DNA from: Alphaproteobacteria bacterium
GTDB taxonomy: Bacteria; Pseudomonadota; Alphaproteobacteria; Rs-D84
DNA: 64,000 nt
Direction: 5' to 3'
Assembly: GCA_017463185.1 (NCBI GenBank)
Contig: JAFTPS010000014.1
Location: forward strand, 154,546 to 218,545
Shown piece by piece: positions 1,240 through 18,428 of the stretch. Each line of letters begins with the position of its first letter. Position 1 is the stretch's first letter. Under the pieces are notes generated by a model. It had not been told where the DNA came from. It saw nothing but the letters and a program-made list of their open reading frames with translations, and searched no databases. The position numbers were made by a program, and so were the translations under genes.

Positions 1240-1490
1240 ACTACACCCTTTGTAAAAAAAACACCGCCAATAAAGGATATTGACGGTCGGGCGTTTCCAA
1301 AAATCATACTGTAAATGACTCCCATTGCGTTCAGGTTGCCCTTATTGTATTACAACGGGTGGCCCGACCAAAGGTCAGGCATAACGATGCGAATGCACCA
1401 TTTGCAAAAGTGGATAACGATGCATATCGCACCGTACAGTATGGGCTTTTGGAACCCGAACCCGCTAGTCCCCTATCGGATTCAATACTT
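1240..1490 (-). promoter_or_regulatory. Conserved structured 5' leader, copy 1 (terminator hairpin plus U8 abutting the RBS; upstream complementary antiterminator segment)
   Basis: In RNA orientation the leader reads ...GGGUUCGGG...CCUGACC..GGUCGGGCC...UAUGAUUU..GCCCGACCGUCAAUAUCCUUUAUUGGCGGUGUUUUUUUU-ACAAAGGG-N7-AUG. GGUCGGGC is complementary to GCCCGACC, which overlaps the terminator stem. The same architecture and motifs recur at 9328-9595 and 16493-16715. Confidence 0.55.
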
Positions 1491-5914: not shown

Positions 5915-6931
5915 TCATTTTGATATATCAGATATCAATATTTCCATCAATTCATCTGACACTTTTTTTACCAATGCATTTTCAACTGTATTACACGATG
6001 CGCCAGATTCATAATGAATTGACTTTGAAACAGAATCAGTGGACACAATTTCCATTGTTGCAGTTTCTATAAGTTTATAGGAAACAGTCAATTTAGCATC
6101 TGTTTTTTGAACTTTTTCGCCTGTCAATTGAATAGTTTTATCTGTACGATTGATATTAAATCTTTCAATTCTACCAACCAACAGATAATCAGCTATTTCC
6201 AATTGTTTTAATTTATTTAAATTTTCTCGTTTTGCTATATCATCATTCAGTAATCCTAATTCTTTTGCTTGTTTATCAAAATTACTTCTGTCGACAACGG
6301 TCAATTTTTTTGACCTAGAGATATCCTTTTCCCACGCTGTTATTAAATCAGCATCTGTTAAACAATCCCATTTTTTCTTGCCTTCAAACCCTGTTATCAC
6401 CACACTATATTTTGATTTTTTTACCAAATCTGGTGAAACATAGTCATCTGTGACAAATACTTTTGCTTCAATCTCGACTGTATATTTTCCTTTTTTTTCT
6501 GATACAGATTTTACAGAATATCCCTCTATTTTTCCTTGATATTTTTGGTTGATATTTCTTTCTTCTATGCGCAAAGATTCATCAATTTTTCCACCTTTGT
6601 AATCTACAAAAACATCTTCCTTATAATCTGCTGAAACCTGTTGTTTATCATCATCAAACCAACCATCCGTAATTGATTTAAACCAAGATTTCTTTTCAAC
6701 CTTTGCTTTTATTTCACGTGTATCTTCCAGATGATAATCAGCAGAAACTATTTTCGCACTGTCTGCACCACCAGACACCACAGAAGTCTGTCTTATAGCA
6801 TTATCAATCGCATCAATAGTAGCTTCATATTCTGATTTTCCGTATCCCGTTGCACCTACATTTTGAATTTTTGCATTTGCATAATTTATAACACCGCAAA
6901 ACATTAAAAATACAATGAAAAATTTTTTCAT
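5915..6931 (-). CDS. Secreted protein, possibly CsgG/LpoB-fold lipoprotein-operon component
   Basis: Signal peptide MKKFFIVFLMFCGVINYANA (start taken at the internal Met). C-terminal ...KYSVVITGFEG..ADYLLVGRIERFNI.. resembles CsgG-family motifs. Last gene of the four-gene operon. Confidence 0.4.
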   Translation of the reverse strand: MKKFFIVFLMFCGVINYANAKIQNVGATGYGKSEYEATIDAIDNAIRQTSVVSGGADSAKIVSADYHLEDTREIKAKVEKKSWFKSITDGWFDDDKQQVSADYKEDVFVDYKGGKIDESLRIEERNINQKYQGKIEGYSVKSVSEKKGKYTVEIEAKVFVTDDYVSPDLVKKSKYSVVITGFEGKKKWDCLTDADLITAWEKDISRSKKLTVVDRSNFDKQAKELGLLNDDIAKRENLNKLKQLEIADYLLVGRIERFNINRTDKTIQLTGEKVQKTDAKLTVSYKLIETATMEIVSTDSVSKSIHYESGASCNTVENALVKKVSDELMEILISDISK

Positions 6932-6991
6932 TTTTACATCCTTTTTTGTAAAAAAACACCCAAACAAAATTTGAGTGTTTTTTATATTCGT

Positions 6992-7594
6992 TTACCAGGT
7001 TTGAGTATCTTTATCCACCAACTTTTTAATAATCTTATAATCTGACCATAATTCAGTACCATCTGATACATCCGTCAAAGATAAATCAAAAGTATATTCA
7101 ATCAGTTTATTTCTGCGATCAACATTTGTATTTTTTTGAGAAATACGCCCTGTCAGTGATAAATCAAATGCTTTTACTGTATTATTTTTCTTTACTGTTG
7201 ATTTATCAACCAACGAAGATTCGGCCAATTCTCTGGACGCAGCAACATCTGAATTTCTGTTTGAACCAAAAGAATTAGTTGCTTTTACATTTCCACTGCG
7301 TCTGACTTCTTTGGTTATAAACATTGTTAAATCGCGCATATTCAGCCGTTGTTGTGTATCATTTACAATTTCCGAAACCTTCATAATATATGGCTGACCA
7401 TTTGGTTTTGGGCTGGCCAATTCATGTGCCAGCATATCATTTAACATACTTTGGGCAGCAACTTCAAAATCATTACTTGATAATGTTGCAGATACAAATT
7501 CCTGGGATTCTGAATCAGTCAATACTTTTGGACTAGAAGAACATCCCACCCCCATAAAAGCTATTGCAATCATTAAATAAAAAACTTTTTTCAT
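6992..7594 (-). CDS. Lipoprotein (DUF799/LpoB-like?)
   Basis: Lipobox MGVGC|SSS. 200 aa. C-terminal pattern LSLTGRISQ...FDLSLTDVSDGTELWS is reminiscent of LpoB/CsgG-like folds. The family assignment is tentative. Confidence 0.4.
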   Translation of the reverse strand: MKKVFYLMIAIAFMGVGCSSSPKVLTDSESQEFVSATLSSNDFEVAAQSMLNDMLAHELASPKPNGQPYIMKVSEIVNDTQQRLNMRDLTMFITKEVRRSGNVKATNSFGSNRNSDVAASRELAESSLVDKSTVKKNNTVKAFDLSLTGRISQKNTNVDRRNKLIEYTFDLSLTDVSDGTELWSDYKIIKKLVDKDTQTW

Positions 7595-7607
7595 TTTTTT
7601 CCTTTTA

Positions 7608-7979
7608 TTATTGTTCTATTTTTGTATTTGATACATAAACTTTATAATCCACAGCCTTGCTTGATGGCGCGACAATGGTCCAATAAAAAGGCAATCCTTT
7701 TTTAACTGTCTGTTTTACATATTTAGACAACAAAGTATTTATTTTTATTCCACTATCATTAAACCAAGCTGTTGAATAATACAAATCTGTATCATTATAC
7801 ACTTCACCAGAAACGGTTATTTTCATATTTCCATTTTCTACATATTCAACCCCATTGATACGAATATTTTTTATACAATCGTCTGGCAGGCTATCTATAT
7901 GTATATGTTCAGGATTCAGATTTTGGGTGGTCGTACAACCACCCAAAACAATTCCTAAAATACAAATAATTTTTTTCAT
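7608..7979 (-). CDS. Small lipoprotein (DUF4810-like?)
   Basis: Lipobox LGGC|TTT. 123 aa. Sits in the operon between two other lipoproteins. Confidence 0.4.
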   Translation of the reverse strand: MKKIICILGIVLGGCTTTQNLNPEHIHIDSLPDDCIKNIRINGVEYVENGNMKITVSGEVYNDTDLYYSTAWFNDSGIKINTLLSKYVKQTVKKGLPFYWTIVAPSSKAVDYKVYVSNTKIEQ

Positions 7980-7992
7980 AATTTACCTGTAT

Positions 7993-9327
7993 TTAGTTCA
8001 GTTTACCAACAACTATTGCTGGCACTGCATTTGCCGTTGGGATACGAACAAATACAATTGCATTTTCAATACCTTCTGGGATAACAACTTCTAAGCCATC
8101 ATTGATAAATAATTTTCTATCAACAGGCATATTGACACGTGCCGTTTGAATTTCTGTTGGTATAGAATCCCAAGATCTTAAATCCCACGGTTTCTTTACA
8201 CTCATAACCCCGGTTACTGCCGCCGCTGTTGCTGCTGCCCTAAACGGAGTATCCTTAGCCGCTTCATTTGCTGCATATCCTGCTGCAGTTGCGGCGGCAA
8301 TTTTTCCAATTTCAAACGCTACTGAACTTATAATATTACGTGTCTTATATTTGTTATAATCAGTTTTAACAACAGAATCAACATTTACTAATTGTTGTGT
8401 TGTAACCGTTGTATCGCCAGATTTAACACTTATTGTTTCTAATGCTTTGGTTCCTGGGAATACATCAGGGATAGTCAGTTCAATACCCGCTTCAACCCCT
8501 AATGCTGACAATGGTTGTGTCAAAGGTTTCAAAACATCTGGTACCAATGAACGTTTTTGCAATTGTCCAACCATACCGTTTTCAAAAACAACATAAACAC
8601 TTCCTTTTTTCAAACCAGCAACATCTGATTTAACAAAAGTATTTTTTGGTGCAAATTTTGCAACTCTGCTCATACCATTGTTCGCATTACTATAATCACC
8701 GCTGGCACCATCATACAACGCCATCAACCAAGTAGTATATGGATTTGCATAATCTTTCATTGCGGTAATATCATCATCCAAAGACGATACATCTTTACTA
8801 ATGGAATCAGTAATAGAATCCAAACTTGGCACATTGATACCAAATTCTTTTAATATTTTTTGATCTTCTTTAAATTTCTCTTGTTCTTTTGCAATTTCAT
8901 CACTATTTTCGCTTATATTTTCTTTTTGTAAATCATATACCTGATTAAACACTTGCTTTGCATAAGAATCATCATTTGCAATCAGTCCAATTCCTTCATA
9001 AGTCTTGAACATAATCTTTTCATAACTTTTGATTTTATATGATGAATCTTCATCGGTTTCACCCTTTAATATAGAATTTACCGGTGAAAAACATGTTTCA
9101 AGTCCTTCTGCATTATTTGCCCATAAATATGCATTACCACACTGCAATCCACCCAAATAAACATTATTCGGTTCTTGATTTAATACAGTTGCCTTAGCCA
9201 TCTTTTCTGCTGCAACTTCGTAATTACCATTTGAAAAATCCTCGCGATATTGTTTGGAAATTTCTGCGTAATTACCATTACAGGCCGCCAATACCAGACA
9301 TCCTGTCAATAAAGTTATTTTTTTCAT
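7993..9327 (-). CDS. Lipoprotein, first gene of the four-gene envelope operon
   Basis: Start taken at MKKITLLTGCLVLAAC (lipobox LAAC). Ala/Thr-rich C-terminus. Immediately preceded by leader copy 2. Confidence 0.45.
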   Translation of the reverse strand: MKKITLLTGCLVLAACNGNYAEISKQYREDFSNGNYEVAAEKMAKATVLNQEPNNVYLGGLQCGNAYLWANNAEGLETCFSPVNSILKGETDEDSSYKIKSYEKIMFKTYEGIGLIANDDSYAKQVFNQVYDLQKENISENSDEIAKEQEKFKEDQKILKEFGINVPSLDSITDSISKDVSSLDDDITAMKDYANPYTTWLMALYDGASGDYSNANNGMSRVAKFAPKNTFVKSDVAGLKKGSVYVVFENGMVGQLQKRSLVPDVLKPLTQPLSALGVEAGIELTIPDVFPGTKALETISVKSGDTTVTTQQLVNVDSVVKTDYNKYKTRNIISSVAFEIGKIAAATAAGYAANEAAKDTPFRAAATAAAVTGVMSVKKPWDLRSWDSIPTEIQTARVNMPVDRKLFINDGLEVVIPEGIENAIVFVRIPTANAVPAIVVGKLN

Positions 9328-9595
9328 TGCACATCCCTTTGTTAAAAAATAAACCGTCAATGGAATTTGACGGTCGGGGAGTTAGCAAATCATATATGTC
9401 AATGATTCTGTCGCTTTTAGGTTTCCCCTGTTGTATAACGAACAGCCCCCCGACTGATTTACAGTCAGGGATAAATAACGACACAAAACCACAGGAATGA
9501 CATCGGATAACGATGCCATACGCAATTTTGCACCGGACATATAAAGGCTTGCTACAGCCCCGAACCCAATTCCCATTGGATTCATTTCCTAGTTT
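9328..9595 (-). promoter_or_regulatory. Conserved structured 5' leader, copy 2
   Basis: RNA orientation: GGGUUCGGGG...CCCUGAC..CAGUCGGGGGGCUGUUCGUUAUACAACAGG...UAUGAUUU...CCCCGACCGUCAAAUUCCAUUGACGGUUUAUUUUUU-AACAAAGGG-N8-AUG. Terminator-like hairpin plus U-tract. GUCGGGG is complementary to CCCCGAC. Confidence 0.55.
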
Positions 9596-9620
9596 AACAT
9601 AAAATATATAAAAAAGGCAA

Positions 9621-9650
9621 AAACAAAAAACGCCGCCAATCGGCGGGTTT
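9621..9650. terminator. Intrinsic terminator (cgccgccaatcggcggg flanked by A- and T-runs)
   Basis: GC stem-loop with a poly-A upstream and poly-T downstream. Lies downstream of rpmJ on the minus strand. Confidence 0.5.
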
Positions 9651-9785
9651 TTATTTTTTCTTGAATCCCTGTTTCGCTTTGAATTTTGGATTATCAGGGT
9701 CAATCAAGATAACTTGCTTTCCACGACGGATTTGTTTAACATTACCGCGTTTCTTCCAAGCCTTTAAGGAACTTAAAAATTTCAT
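9651..9785 (-). CDS. rpmJ: 50S ribosomal protein bL36 (type B, non-zinc form)
   Basis: A 44-aa ORF absent from the ORF track (below the size cutoff): MKFLSSLKAWKKRGNVKQIRRGKQVILIDPDNPKFKAKQGFKKK. This closely matches the YkgO/bL36 type-B pattern MKV.SSLK..K.R....IV.R.G...VI.K.NPRFKA.QG. It sits between the leader and a terminator. Confidence 0.8.
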   Translation of the reverse strand: MKFLSSLKAWKKRGNVKQIRRGKQVILIDPDNPKFKAKQGFKKK

Positions 9786-15882: not shown

Positions 15883-15914
15883 AAAAAAACACCGGTAATT
15901 GCCGGTGTTTTTGT
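15883..15914. terminator. Bidirectional intrinsic terminator (caccggtaattgccggtg)
   Basis: Perfect palindrome flanked by A- and T-runs, between the convergent ychF and OMP genes. Confidence 0.55.
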
Positions 15915-16492
15915 TAGAAACGATAACCAATACTGGTTGTTATGGCAAAACCAGATGTATCAACTGTATATTCATAACCGTTTACATCAGTTTCAAAATT
16001 CATAATTTGATATTCTAATCCACCCTTTATAGACAGATTATCATTGAAATTATATTTCACACCGGCGCCAATGCCATAGGCAACGGCTGTATCATCAAAG
16101 CTTAAACTTCCGTCATCATATTCCATATTTGCAAATCCTAATTCTGCTGAAATGTATGGTTGTGTTTTTCCGTCCAAGAATGGAACAATAGCTCTTAAAC
16201 TAACACCAAATATTTCTTCCGTTTCTGTTTCTGAAAATTCTGGTGCAATACCAATTTGAATACCGTCAAAATCAATGCCGACATATGCAGAACCATTACC
16301 GTTAAAAGCAGAAGAATCTGCTTCTGTAATTTTTGTTCCGTCTAATTCATATTCCGCAGATGTGTTTGAATACAAACTGATTCCATATTCAATAAAAAAT
16401 CGTGGGTTTAATTTATTTTGTTGAACACTTTCTTCTGCAAAAGAAGTCACCGGCAACAAAGCCAATGCGGCAATTATTGAAATTTTTTTCAT
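15914..16492 (-). CDS. Small outer-membrane beta-barrel protein (Omp25/OmpW-like)
   Basis: Signal peptide MKKISIIAALALLPVTSFA and a C-terminal ...TTSIGYRF. Preceded by leader copy 3. Confidence 0.6.
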   Translation of the reverse strand: MKKISIIAALALLPVTSFAEESVQQNKLNPRFFIEYGISLYSNTSAEYELDGTKITEADSSAFNGNGSAYVGIDFDGIQIGIAPEFSETETEEIFGVSLRAIVPFLDGKTQPYISAELGFANMEYDDGSLSFDDTAVAYGIGAGVKYNFNDNLSIKGGLEYQIMNFETDVNGYEYTVDTSGFAITTSIGYRF

Positions 16493-16715
16493 ATTTTCTC
16501 CCTTTGGTTAAAATTTAAACCGTCAGAAATGACGGTCGGGGTGGTTGATAAATCATAGTTTAGGAAATGACTCTGTTGTCTTTGGGAAAATCCCTGTTAT
16601 ATAACAAACAGCCCCCCGACCGTTATAGGTCAGGGATATTTCAGTGTGTAATAAACACTGCCTAAACTATTGGGTTATCACACCCCGAACCCACATCCCT
16701 GCAGGTTCATTAAAA
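16493..16715 (-). promoter_or_regulatory. Conserved structured 5' leader, copy 3
   Basis: RNA orientation: GGGUUCGGGG...CCCUGACC..GGUCGGGGGGCUGUUUGUUAUAUAACAGG..UAUGAUUU..CCCCGACCGUCAUUUCUGACGGUUUAAAUUUU-AACCAAAGGGAG-N4-AUG. Confidence 0.5.
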
Positions 16716-16803
16716 AGTATATATTAAATATCACTACTTTTCAACCCAAAGCAAAAATATATAAATAATTCATATAAATTAAAATTTCTCAGGAACACAA
16801 TAG

Positions 16804-16884
16804 ACCCCGGCCTGCGCCGGGGTGACGATTAGTTATTTGTATATAGATTTTAGACTCGTCATACCGGCGTAGGCCGGTATCCAC
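16804..16884. repeat. Two GC-rich REP-like palindromes upstream of the GIY-YIG gene (ccccggc-ctgc-gccgggg; ataccggc-gtag-gccggtat)
   Basis: GC-rich hairpins in an AT-rich context. Homologous hairpins flank the second GIY-YIG paralog at 63552-63577 and 63968-63997. Confidence 0.5.
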
Positions 16885-16939: not shown

Positions 16940-17254
16940 ATGAAATCTGGTGGTTGGATTTATATTTTATCAAATAAAAAAATGGGTACTTTGTATGTTG
17001 GTTCAACAACCGATTTAGTTGGACGAACATGGCAACATAAAAATCGTTGGATTCCTGGTTTTACATCCAAATACAATATTGATAAACTGGTGTATTATGA
17101 ATGGCATGACAGTCTTGAAAATATGGTTTTGCGTGAACGTCAAATAAAAGAATGGAAACGTGCATGGAAATTAAGACTAATAATAGATTTTAACCCCGAT
17201 TGGCTTGATTTATATAATGAGTTGTTAACTAAATCAGGCTATATCCCAGAATAA
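16940..17254 (+). CDS. GIY-YIG nuclease family protein (UPF0213/COG2827-like)
   Basis: GIY-YIG core ...GWIYILSNKKMGTLYVGSTTDLVGRTWQHKN... About 70% identical to the paralog at 63596-63910. Flanked by 24-bp direct repeats: caggaacacaatagaccccggcct at 16790-16813 and cacagaacacaatggactccggcct at 17261-17285. Confidence 0.75.
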   Translation: MKSGGWIYILSNKKMGTLYVGSTTDLVGRTWQHKNRWIPGFTSKYNIDKLVYYEWHDSLENMVLRERQIKEWKRAWKLRLIIDFNPDWLDLYNELLTKSGYIPE

Positions 17255-17343
17255 AAACATCACAGAACACAATGGACTCCGGCCTAGTATCACCCACAAA
17301 AATTTTCAATTTTTGCGGGACCCGAAGCCGGGGTTATGTGCAA

Positions 17344-17406
17344 TCACTACCCACTAACCACTTACACTAACCACTATAAAAATCCCGCCATTGGCAGGAT
17401 TTTTAT
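17344..17406 (+). ncRNA. Candidate small RNA 3' end: CA-rich motif (cactaaccacttacactaaccacta) followed by an intrinsic terminator; copy A
   Basis: A 33-nt motif nearly identical to 43881-43913, in both cases immediately followed by aaaaatccc-GC hairpin-tttt. No ORF is present. Confidence 0.3.
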
Positions 17407-18428
17407 ATATACCATTCAACTGTTTTTATAATGCCGGTATCAAATGTTTCATCAGCGCGCCACCCCAGCTCTGTTTCCAGTTTGGTTGCATCAATTGCAT
17501 ATCGGAAATCGTGACCGGCACGATCAGCAACAAATGTAATCAATTCTTCATACTTTTTGCCATCGGCGCGCGGACGCTTTTCATCCAGTATGGCACAGAT
17601 TGTTTTTACAATTGTAATATTGTTGCGTTCATTATGCCCGCCAATATTATATGTTTCACCTGCACGTCCTTTGTGGAAAATTAAATCAATTGCCTTGCAG
17701 TGGTCCAGCACATACAGCCAGTCACGAACATTTTCACCCCGTCCGTAAATAGGCAAAGGTTGCAATGCCAACGCTTTGCCAATAATATGCGGAATCAGTT
17801 TTTCATTATGCTGTTTTGGACCATAATTGTTGGAACAATTTGATGTTGTTACATTCATTCCATATGTATGATGATATGCGCGTACCAGAAAGTCAGACGA
17901 TGCTTTTGATGCTGAATATGGACTGTTTGGTGCGTATGGTGTATCCTCGCGGAACATACCAGTTGCGCCCAATGCGCCATAAACTTCATCTGTTGAAATA
18001 TGATGAAAACGTGCATCTTCATAGCCTGATTTTATTTTACCGGGCCCATCCATCCAATGCTTGCGTGCCGCATCCAGTAAATTAAAAGTTCCTATAATAT
18101 TAGTATTGATAAATGCGCGTGGTCCTTTTATAGAATTATCCACATGACTTTCTGCGGCAAAATGGATTACACCACGAATATCATTTTCTGTAAATAATTT
18201 TTCAATTAAATCCACATCGCAAATATCGCCCTGAACAAAAGTATAGTTGGGCATATTTTCACATTCACGCAAATTATCCAGATTTCCCGCATATGTCAGT
18301 TTATCCAGATTGATAATTTTATATTCGGGATATTTTTCACAAAAATATGGAACAAAATTAGAACCAATAAATCCCGCACCACCTGTGATTAAAATTGTTT
18401 TATACATTTTTCCAAACCTTTTTTCCAA
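17403..18428 (-). CDS. rfbB: dTDP-glucose 4,6-dehydratase
   Basis: TILITGGAGFIGSNFV Rossmann motif, the NLDKLTYAGNLDNL hallmark, and a YxxxK catalytic pair. The true start is probably the internal Met (MYKT) at 18407. Confidence 0.9.
   Translation of the reverse strand: MEKRFGKMYKTILITGGAGFIGSNFVPYFCEKYPEYKIINLDKLTYAGNLDNLRECENMPNYTFVQGDICDVDLIEKLFTENDIRGVIHFAAESHVDNSIKGPRAFINTNIIGTFNLLDAARKHWMDGPGKIKSGYEDARFHHISTDEVYGALGATGMFREDTPYAPNSPYSASKASSDFLVRAYHHTYGMNVTTSNCSNNYGPKQHNEKLIPHIIGKALALQPLPIYGRGENVRDWLYVLDHCKAIDLIFHKGRAGETYNIGGHNERNNITIVKTICAILDEKRPRADGKKYEELITFVADRAGHDFRYAIDATKLETELGWRADETFDTGIIKTVEWYI

Follow-up and report, generated by a model that had tools for sequence, protein, structure and literature searches.

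The 64,000-nucleotide (64-kb) window analysed here, taken from contig JAFTPS010000014.1 of an alphaproteobacterium of the lineage Rs-D84, carries on its minus strand a structured RNA leader (copy 3) that directly precedes a gene for a small outer-membrane protein (OMP). We describe how one G-rich strand of this leader, GGUCGGGG, can pair either upstream or downstream in a manner that bears on an intrinsic terminator, and we argue from the sequences of the leader and its homologs that copy 3 is probably a cis-acting, riboswitch-like transcription attenuator whose default state is OFF. The helices of both folds and their overlaps, the promoter, the terminator and the position ahead of genes are established by the analysis. 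That the leader acts as a conditional terminator/antiterminator switch is a reading we hold with good confidence; that it is a true metabolite- or ion-sensing riboswitch appears possible rather than probable. Two long-range helices, the competing antiterminator and a similarity to the small RNA (sRNA) family sRNA-Xcc1 were found here and did not figure in the original prediction for this stretch of DNA.

Competing pairings and the long-range clamp

More than 130 distinct homologs of the leader were collected from metagenome-assembled genomes (MAGs) and metagenomes of gut 'Candidatus Enterousia'/Rs-D84 Alphaproteobacteria. One set comprises 67 loci in species-representative genomes, found by an exact 3' pattern, and the other 71 metagenomic loci, found by a pattern from helices P1 and P2 only; since only 11 of 61 P1/P2-selected metagenome loci also match the 3' pattern, these loci offer an unbiased view of the 3' half of the leader. 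Covariation was judged against column shuffles and slid partners in a 60-sequence alignment, in which P1, P2, P5, P6 with its inner hairpin, and the terminator are paired in 89.6% of cells, compared with 79% in the shuffled and 33-50% in the slid controls; the same five helices hold 191 double-change cells against 63 expected. P6 stands out (97.8% paired vs. 78% in shuffles, with 124 double-change cells vs. 24), and P1 is paired in 94% of cells, with six of its nine pairs changed on both sides. Copy 3 itself folds at -83 kcal/mol (z=-6.5), a value equalled by none of 200 shuffles. The structured leader claimed by the original prediction is thus backed, as RNA structure, by covariation in more than 100 homologs.

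Two strands can pair with the G-rich strand GGUCGGGG: an upstream CCCyGACC strand, with which it forms P5, and a downstream nnCCCCGACC strand, with which it forms the antiterminator (AT) helix, a duplex of 10-11 bp (GGUCGGGGnn / nnCCCCGACC). The P5 helix is paired in 90% of cells, and its changes preserve G-U/U-G wobble pairs (C/U opposite G, A/G opposite U); the AT helix is paired in 94-97%, with 46-62 double-change cells against 11-18 expected and strong covariation in its three distal pairs. Rare variants extend this picture to both helices at once—in loci L111 and L129, GGCCGGGG is matched by CCCCGGU in P5 and by CCCCGGCC in AT—and because of such three-way compensation both alternative pairings must be under selection. 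In L082, the base common to AT and the terminator forms an A-U pair in the former and a U-A pair in the latter. When folding was constrained, P5 together with the terminator was the minimum-free-energy (MFE) state in 43 of 60 leaders, and the terminator was present in 55 of 60. In all three leader copies of the window, the isolated AT duplex is more stable than that of P5 (-16.7 kcal/mol in copy 3), by 1.3-3.4 kcal/mol. A further cross-pairing suggested by the MFE fold of copy 3, between the P2 5' strand and the AT 3' strand, was found in 17 of 53 cases against 11 expected, a weak excess obtained with imprecise regular-expression parsing.

When the AT helix forms, it closes a three-way junction with P6 and a candidate hairpin, P7. 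On 68 sequences selected by the 5' pattern, the pairs of this junction are 96.6% paired compared with 87.3% in shuffles, and double changes occur in 17 of its 24 pairs (7.8 expected), a level reached in none of 500 shuffles.

The other state is marked by two long-range helices, which were assessed by pairing the strands of each RNA with each other and, as a mismatched control, with strands from different RNAs. Strand a comprises the 9-10 nt directly after P2, and strand a' the segment just ahead of GAUUU. On average, the longest a-a' helix spans 9.2 bp when both strands come from one RNA and 5.5-6.2 bp when they are mismatched, and in the 5'-selected set it reaches at least 8 bp in 91% of RNAs compared with 12% of mismatched pairs. 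The sequence of a-a' differs in nearly every copy and is complementary within each: AUACUGUA/UACAGUAU in copy 1, UAUAUGUC/GACAUAUA in copy 2, and AUAGUUUAGG/CCUAAACUAU in copy 3. The second helix, b-b', joins the P2 loop to the linker after a' (UUCCAAAA/UUUUGGAA in copy 1, UAGCAAG/UUUGCUA in copy 2, UGAUAA/UUAUCA in copy 3) and reaches at least 6 bp in 93% of RNAs vs. 31% of mismatched pairs. Because a' and b' cover the P7 loop, its 3' strand and the linker, the clamp helices and the junction would compete.

The proposed switch and its rivals

Under the mechanism proposed here, copy 3 would decide whether RNA polymerase stops at the intrinsic terminator before the OMP gene. In the OFF fold, which is the calculated ground state, a-a' and b-b' would clamp the segment between P6 and the C-rich strand, and P5 (CCCUGACC/GGUCGGGG) would hold the G-rich strand, leaving CCCCGACC free; the full terminator (GACCGUCA/UGACGGUU plus U-tract) would then form and the gene would stay silent. 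In the ON fold, the emerging CC(A)CCCCGACC would use as a toehold the two or three unpaired G's after P5 (the last 2-3 nt of GGUCGGGGGG, unpaired in the OFF fold), displace CCCUGACC and pair with GGUCGGGGGG, closing the sRNA-Xcc1-type three-way junction of AT, P6 and P7. With ACC thus withdrawn, the terminator stem would lose 3 bp and keep 4-5 weak pairs, which would permit read-through; for this, the Xcc1-like junction would have to win over the clamped fold. An effector presumably shifts the balance between the folds, most likely by stabilising either the conserved three-way junction of the ON state or the clamp of the OFF state. Since the RNA is large and autonomous, direct sensing is the single most likely trigger, with a small ligand or ion that binds the RNA itself as the favoured effector; thermometer function or Mg2+ sensing would be speculation.

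Several points weigh against this account. On average, nested folding places the AT state about 10 kcal/mol above the OFF state, and read-through would therefore need kinetics or an effector. Instead of excluding a-a' and b-b', the AT helix might also form alongside them in a pseudoknot. P7 is compatible with pairing yet has almost no covariation of its own (95.7% paired vs. 95.0% shuffled); with none beyond shuffles and few double changes, the GUCAU/AUGAU pairing was not accepted as a proven helix and is kept only within the Xcc1-like fold. Half of the homologs were picked through a 3' pattern in which CCCGACCGTCA is fixed, a bias that the 5'-selected set corrects, and the ends of the leader transcript are predicted from sequence. 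The downstream genes—surface, restriction-modification, XRE and small membrane proteins—point to no single metabolite.

The main rival keeps the same RNA switch and has it thrown by an RNA-binding protein (an antiterminator, a terminator-promoting factor, or a ProQ/FinO- or Hfq-type chaperone) or by an RNA acting in trans, for which the conserved single-stranded rUCAUU, UUAUCC and AUAyAA/AAAG loop would be the binding sites. We consider this unlikely, although it would suit a heterogeneous regulon that resembles a global programme for accessory and surface genes more than a pathway, and would give a role to several invariant unpaired motifs that lack an assigned partner. Protein-dependent attenuators such as the RAT, PyrR and TRAP sites are far simpler than this RNA of about 200 nt, with its seven or more helices and two long-range pairings, and no candidate partner gene was seen beside the leaders. 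The discussion of sRNA-Xcc1 relatives as Hfq-associated sRNAs (PMC12189769) speaks for such a factor, and the size of Enterousia genomes, below 1 Mb (PMC12306168), against it. A different proposal, that the element is a free-standing, trans-acting sRNA gene of about 200 nt whose position ahead of genes is incidental or merely gives read-through transcription, strikes us as improbable. The leader does have its own promoter and terminator and resembles an Rfam 'Gene; sRNA' family with an 88-nt Xanthomonas transcript (PMC2996969), and a bona fide Neisseria Xcc1 is set apart from the next open reading frame (ORF) by a promoter-like site; yet about 140 cases lie on the same strand as the gene, mostly 5-25 nt before a Shine-Dalgarno (SD) sequence and start, usually with no room for another promoter. 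Moreover, the variable strands a and b pair within their own molecule and so expose no common seed, and an antiterminator that competes specifically with the terminator would be purposeless in a plain sRNA.

The specific competition between pairings also bears on a constitutive structured 5' untranslated region (UTR) that would stabilise the mRNA, insulate it or confer terminator resistance (like put of HK022, or EAR) without sensing anything. The location at the extreme 5' end of the transcript, in many copies ahead of unrelated genes that include long surface-protein genes (autotransporters of 1000-1250 aa), would fit such an element; its probability is nevertheless small, slightly below that of the sRNA gene, since selection has kept two mutually exclusive pairings of one strand together with a functional-looking terminator, which is the signature of a switch, and an anti-antiterminator such as P5 would not be needed. 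Finally, an explanation at the DNA level—a mobile miniature element, an invertible promoter segment or a REP-like (repetitive extragenic palindromic) repeat—was rejected. Multiple copies and the inverted repeats GGTCGGGG/CCCCGACC would be expected of it, but copies in the same genome are only ~70-75% identical, the compensatory, G-U-preserving changes concern one strand only, the orientation to the gene is always the same, about 150 nhmmer matches include no inverted 85-bp segment, and viral contigs gave no match to the element. A cis-acting attenuator, with direct sensing as its most likely trigger, remains the preferred reading of the leader.

Copy 3, its sister copies and the wider family

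The features of copy 3 are collected in Table 1 together with the other two copies in the window. All of the motifs quoted for copy 3 by the original prediction were found where it had placed them, on the minus strand: GGGUUCGGGG (16692-16683), CCCUGACC (16635-16628), GGUCGGGGGGCUGUU (16621-16607), UAUGAUUU (16557-16550) and CCCCGACCGUCAUUUCUGACGGUUU (16541-16517), the last of which occurs a single time in the window with 0 occurrences expected by chance. The promoter matches the consensus at 10 of 12 positions and predicts a transcription start at ~16710/16709. At the other end, 16493 is taken as the last leader base because the ATG of the downstream ORF occupies 16492-16490.

Table 1. Window coordinates of the three leader copies and of the elements of copy 3; all lie on the minus strand.
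Feature	Position	Strand	Details
Leader copy 1	1250..1484	-	nhmmer placement; covariance model 1285-1369; before 408-aa autotransporter beta-domain protein
Leader copy 2	9340..9584	-	nhmmer placement; covariance model 9372-9455; before 444-aa lipoprotein-like gene, then DUF1425, LpoB-like and CsgG-like genes
Leader copy 3, whole RNA	16710-16494	-	~217 nt, from predicted 5' end; nhmmer placement 16509-16709; covariance model 16534-16621
Sigma-70 promoter	16716..16744	-	-35 TTGAAA 16744-16739, 17-nt spacer, -10 TATACT 16721-16716
P1	16687..16708	-	9-bp hairpin GAACCUGCA-GGGA-UGUGGGUUC, GNRA loop, transcript 5' end
P2 hairpin	16672..16685	-	GGGU/ACCC; loop carries strand b, UGAUAA 16680-16675
Strand a	16661..16670	-	AUAGUUUAGG; half of long-range helix a-a'
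P3 hairpin	16642..16660	-	CAGUGU-UUAUUAC-ACACUG
P5 5' strand	16628..16635	-	CCCUGACC; anti-antiterminator, OFF-fold partner of GGUCGGGG
Shared G-rich strand	16612..16621	-	GGUCGGGGGG; P5 3' strand or AT 5' strand
P6	16573..16611	-	CUGUUUGU/ACAACAG, internal loop UAUAUAACA/AAAG, inner hairpin GGGA-UUU-UCCC
Candidate P7 hairpin	16572-16568 / 16555-16551	-	AGUCA / UGAUU
Strand a'	16555..16564	-	CCUAAACUAU; overlaps loop and first 3'-strand bases of candidate P7
Strand b'	16546..16551	-	UUAUCA; pairs with P2 loop
AT 3' strand	16534..16544	-	CCACCCCGACC; last 3 nt (ACC) = first 3 nt of terminator stem
Three-way junction AT + P6 + P7	16534..16621	-	ON fold, sRNA-Xcc1-like; model R1 79.3 bits, E=1.5e-14
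Intrinsic terminator	16508..16537	-	stem-loop GACCGUCA-UUUC-UGACGGUU 16537-16518; interrupted U-tract UAAAUUUUAA 16517-16508
SD and start codon	16490..16504	-	AAGGGAG 16504-16498; ATG 16492-16490
Regulated gene	15914..16492	-	192-aa outer-membrane beta-barrel protein; N-terminal signal peptide MKKISIIAALALLPVTSFA

Exactly three copies of the leader were found in the window, all on the minus strand, with nhmmer and a covariance model in agreement. They are ~70-75% identical to one another (copy 3 vs. copy 2: 75% over 145 nt, E=9e-17), so that copy 3 is indeed a third paralog, as comparison by nhmmer, covariance model and alignment confirms. Copy 3 has one central hairpin (P3), and copies 1 and 2 have two (P3, P4). 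The intrinsic terminator that had been proposed for copy 3 was also detected: a G+C-rich hairpin followed by a U-tract, with a stem that covaries across the family, lies 25 nt ahead of the OMP start codon. Its hairpin (-10.2 kcal/mol) and its U-tract (UAAAUUUUAA, with 5 U in 10 nt and 2 in the first 5) make it the weakest of the three terminators; copy 2 has -11.3 kcal/mol and 7 U, and copy 1 -13.5 kcal/mol and 8 U in the 10 nt after the stem. The weaker U-tract noted in the original prediction therefore holds, and from hairpin energy and U count it is reasonable to infer that the basal termination efficiency would differ among the three copies.

The gene behind copy 3 had been described as small and Omp25/OmpW-like. 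Its 192-aa product does belong to a beta-barrel family (Pfam OMP_b-brl, PF13505; E=1.4e-11, 45.3 bits vs. a cut-off of 28.7) and also shows a weak Opacity/OprF match; the likeness to OmpW found no such backing, as OmpW is absent from its Pfam matches at E<=0.01. The neighbouring genes are those for YchF, the OMP and a GIY-YIG protein. The small GIY-YIG domain gene (16940-17254, + strand) is flanked by G+C-rich palindromes at 16800-16880 and 17270-17340 (e.g., ACCCCGGCGCAGGCCGGGGT at 16823-16804 and CCGGCGTAGGCCGG at ~16864-16880), which resemble REP-like hairpins or terminators placed about a nuclease gene that may be mobile. Beyond them, 17341-17410 holds a run of short CACTAACCACTTAC-like repeats and then a hairpin with a T-tract (AAAAATCCCGCCATTGGCAGGATTTTT); similar CCACTTAC/CACTAAC repeats lie upstream of the leaders in L046 and L050, two other Enterousia loci. 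Copy 2 is followed by an operon (5915-9327, minus strand) for the 444-aa lipoprotein and DUF1425 (YcfL-like), LpoB-like and CsgG-like proteins, suggesting an envelope or lipoprotein secretion-type module that stands under the leader. A 141-aa ORF that runs through copy 2 (9278-9703, minus strand) was considered as evidence for a coding region or leader peptide but lacks conservation in the homologs and is almost certainly spurious; the leader-peptide reading was rejected because the first codon varies (ATG/GTG/TTG/CTG/ACG/GCG) and substitutions track helices rather than codons.

Almost all of the genome loci come from gut MAGs labelled Candidatus Enterousia, uncultured Alphaproteobacteria or Rickettsiales, on chromosomal contigs of up to 935 kb; Enterousia belongs to the order Rs-D84, in which most genomes are below 1 Mb (PMC12306168). 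Leaders typical of Enterousia were also seen on contigs labelled Bacteroidota (L005 and L029, CAZJGX01, labelled Muribaculaceae; L058, labelled Bacteroides fragilis), which most likely reflects mis-binning and not horizontal transfer, and viral contigs gave no match. In 66 distinct upstream regions the promoter lies at a fixed distance from P1 (TTG at -34..-32, an extended -10 TG, TAnAAT at -11..-6), and because this distance is fixed across the family the leader RNA is taken to start at P1. An SD sequence and ATG usually follow the U-tract by 5-25 nt on the same strand. Individual loci show further peculiarities. Locus L055 (7262-7499) has the full aptamer-like part without a recognisable 3' strand of the terminator (CCCCGACCGUCAAUUUCCGAGAGAAAAACUUUGGC...), and is either a decayed copy or one with a different expression platform. 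Transfer RNA (tRNA) genes lie close to several leaders (L084, 133-601; L069, 699-771; L068, 3941-4013), with three of them ~200-700 nt upstream of the leader in L084, and a palindrome in L090 (1387-1529) matches the Wolbachia sRNA WsnRNA46 (RF02625) on both strands at 45 and 37 bits, below the gathering threshold (GA) of 65.3.

The genes controlled were surveyed through 105 non-redundant downstream proteins. Signal-peptide-like N-termini are present in 48 of 58 proteins of the genome-derived set. Most downstream proteins have no Pfam match; among the matches are 13 autotransporter beta-domains, 11 Chlamydia PMP repeats, four OMP beta-barrels, a YadA anchor, glycosyltransferase/LicD/TupA enzymes, PAP2 and DUF805, along with two N6/N4 DNA methylases, Mrr/ResIII nucleases and XRE-type helix-turn-helix (HTH) proteins, and the set also includes lipoproteins and small membrane proteins. 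The theme of the regulon is thus surface and accessory genes, not a metabolic pathway. This makes the leader a candidate master control of the Enterousia/Rs-D84 cell surface towards host and phage, present three times in 64 kb in uncultured gut bacteria with genomes below 1 Mb and presumably few protein regulators. From a practical perspective, the natural variants of the family, over 130 in number and carrying compensatory changes for two folds, are ready-made mutational designs.

The whole window gave 0 matches to Rfam at gathering thresholds, copy 3 gave only noise in E-value mode, and no Rfam riboswitch model was matched by the leader. Literature searches found no account of a riboswitch in Enterousia and nothing relevant on a riboswitch candidate combined with autotransporters and Alphaproteobacteria. 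The leader is described in no paper or Rfam family that we found, and its 5' domain, the two copy-specific clamp helices, the competition among P5, AT and terminator, and the association with surface-protein genes in Rs-D84 bacteria all appear to be new.

Relation to sRNA-Xcc1 and other RNA switches

The closest known relative of the junction is sRNA-Xcc1 (RF02221), which Rfam classes as 'Gene; sRNA'. It was seen as a ~88-nt transcript in Xanthomonas and described as trans-acting (PMC2996969); it is carried by integrons, transposons, plasmids and phages of Xanthomonas, Xylella, Neisseria, Pseudomonas and others, is multi-copy in Xylella, and lies upstream of symE, BRO, KilA-N or ORF6N genes. 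A literature search found no paper treating it as cis-regulatory. Copy 2 matches the whole 87-position model at 36.4 bits (GA 53, E ~3e-5), the aligned region being the AT-closed junction, and 6 of 20 other homologs match at 35.1-40.3 bits; copy 3 gave no match at E<=10. None of the leaders scored reaches the gathering score of 53 bits, compared with 69-73 bits for bona fide sRNA-Xcc1 from a Nitratidesulfovibrio plasmid, a Neisseria gonorrhoeae record and a Pseudomonas plasmid. In the opposite direction, a covariance model built from 41 Enterousia junctions and restricted to the 83-position junction (R1) recognises L139, the bona fide Nitratidesulfovibrio Xcc1 that scores 69.7 bits to RF02221, with 51.1 bits (E=1.6e-8), compensatory changes keeping every pair compatible; it does not match the other two (L140, L141) at E<=1. 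The elements of the Xcc1 junction—a closing G/C helix, a helix with an AUACAA internal loop and inner hairpin, and a second hairpin—are all present in the leader. The 3' third of the leader is probably a distant variant of sRNA-Xcc1.

The likenesses are specific. The closing helix GgCcGGggG/CccCCgGcC of sRNA-Xcc1 corresponds to GGUCGGGGG/CCCCGACC here, and both RNAs have the AUACAA...(G/A)AA internal loop with a short inner hairpin, the second hairpin, and a U-rich linker that ends A-rich; both are multi-copy and lie upstream of accessory genes. The inner hairpin, however, is flipped in the leader (GGG..CCC vs. CCC-GNRA-GGG in Xcc1), and host lineage and downstream genes differ. Unlike the ~88-nt Xcc1 transcript, the junction here makes up the 3' third of a leader of ~220 nt, beginning ~90 nt after the predicted start and followed by terminator and gene; P1-P5, the two competing long-range helices and a separate terminator overlapping the closing helix are additions of the leader. 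The leaders were not found in an integron cassette, phage, plasmid or genomic island, the typical locations of Xcc1, but on chromosomal MAG contigs, with no match in viral contigs. The bona fide Xcc1 elements themselves (L139, 1182-1272; L140, 1185-1270; L141, 1198-1280) lie upstream of accessory genes on the same strand, with gaps of 40-50 nt to a hypothetical protein in L139 and a BRO family protein in L141. In the Neisseria record, a TTGACA-17-TATAAT promoter-like site separates the element from a 295-aa protein that, judged from its N-terminal sequence alone, may be KilA-N-like, and in L139 the closing helix shares 2 nt with a small hairpin, an arrangement reminiscent of the way AT and terminator overlap in the leader.

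This structural link offers a testable hypothesis for sRNA-Xcc1, whose mechanism has been unclear since 2010-2011: its junction may be the ON state of a cis switch. A more far-reaching version, in which the Xcc1-type junction is the ligand-binding aptamer of a new riboswitch class that has been built into a clamp-and-terminator leader in Enterousia/Rs-D84, is put forward only tentatively, as we think it doubtful. If it were true, dozens of genes for surface proteins, restriction-modification and regulators would be turned on by a single chemical or ionic signal, and the 'trans-acting' sRNA-Xcc1 elements found in integron cassettes, phages and plasmids would in reality be sensors that regulate, in cis, the accessory genes behind them.

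Among established RNA switches, the cyclic di-GMP (c-di-GMP) riboswitches (GEMM-I/II) also occur in many copies per genome before genes for adhesins and outer-membrane proteins, and share a GNRA loop in the 5' hairpin; their architecture differs from that of the leader, copies 2 and 3 gave no match at E<=10 to RF01051 or RF01786 (c-di-GMP-I/II), and the resemblance lies only in the kind of genes controlled. Two hallmarks of riboswitches in general are found in the leader: a structured 5' UTR domain in cis that is supported by covariation, and a platform in which terminator and antiterminator exclude each other. The purine, ZTP and M-box riboswitches, with their three-strand terminator/antiterminator design, differ from the leader in that its regulon is not a pathway and the sequences of its clamp helices a-a' and b-b' differ in every copy. 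The leader nevertheless has in common with them the position in the 5' UTR, a complex covarying fold, one strand with two partners, an antiterminator that overlaps an intrinsic terminator, a toehold-like geometry and a multi-copy regulon.

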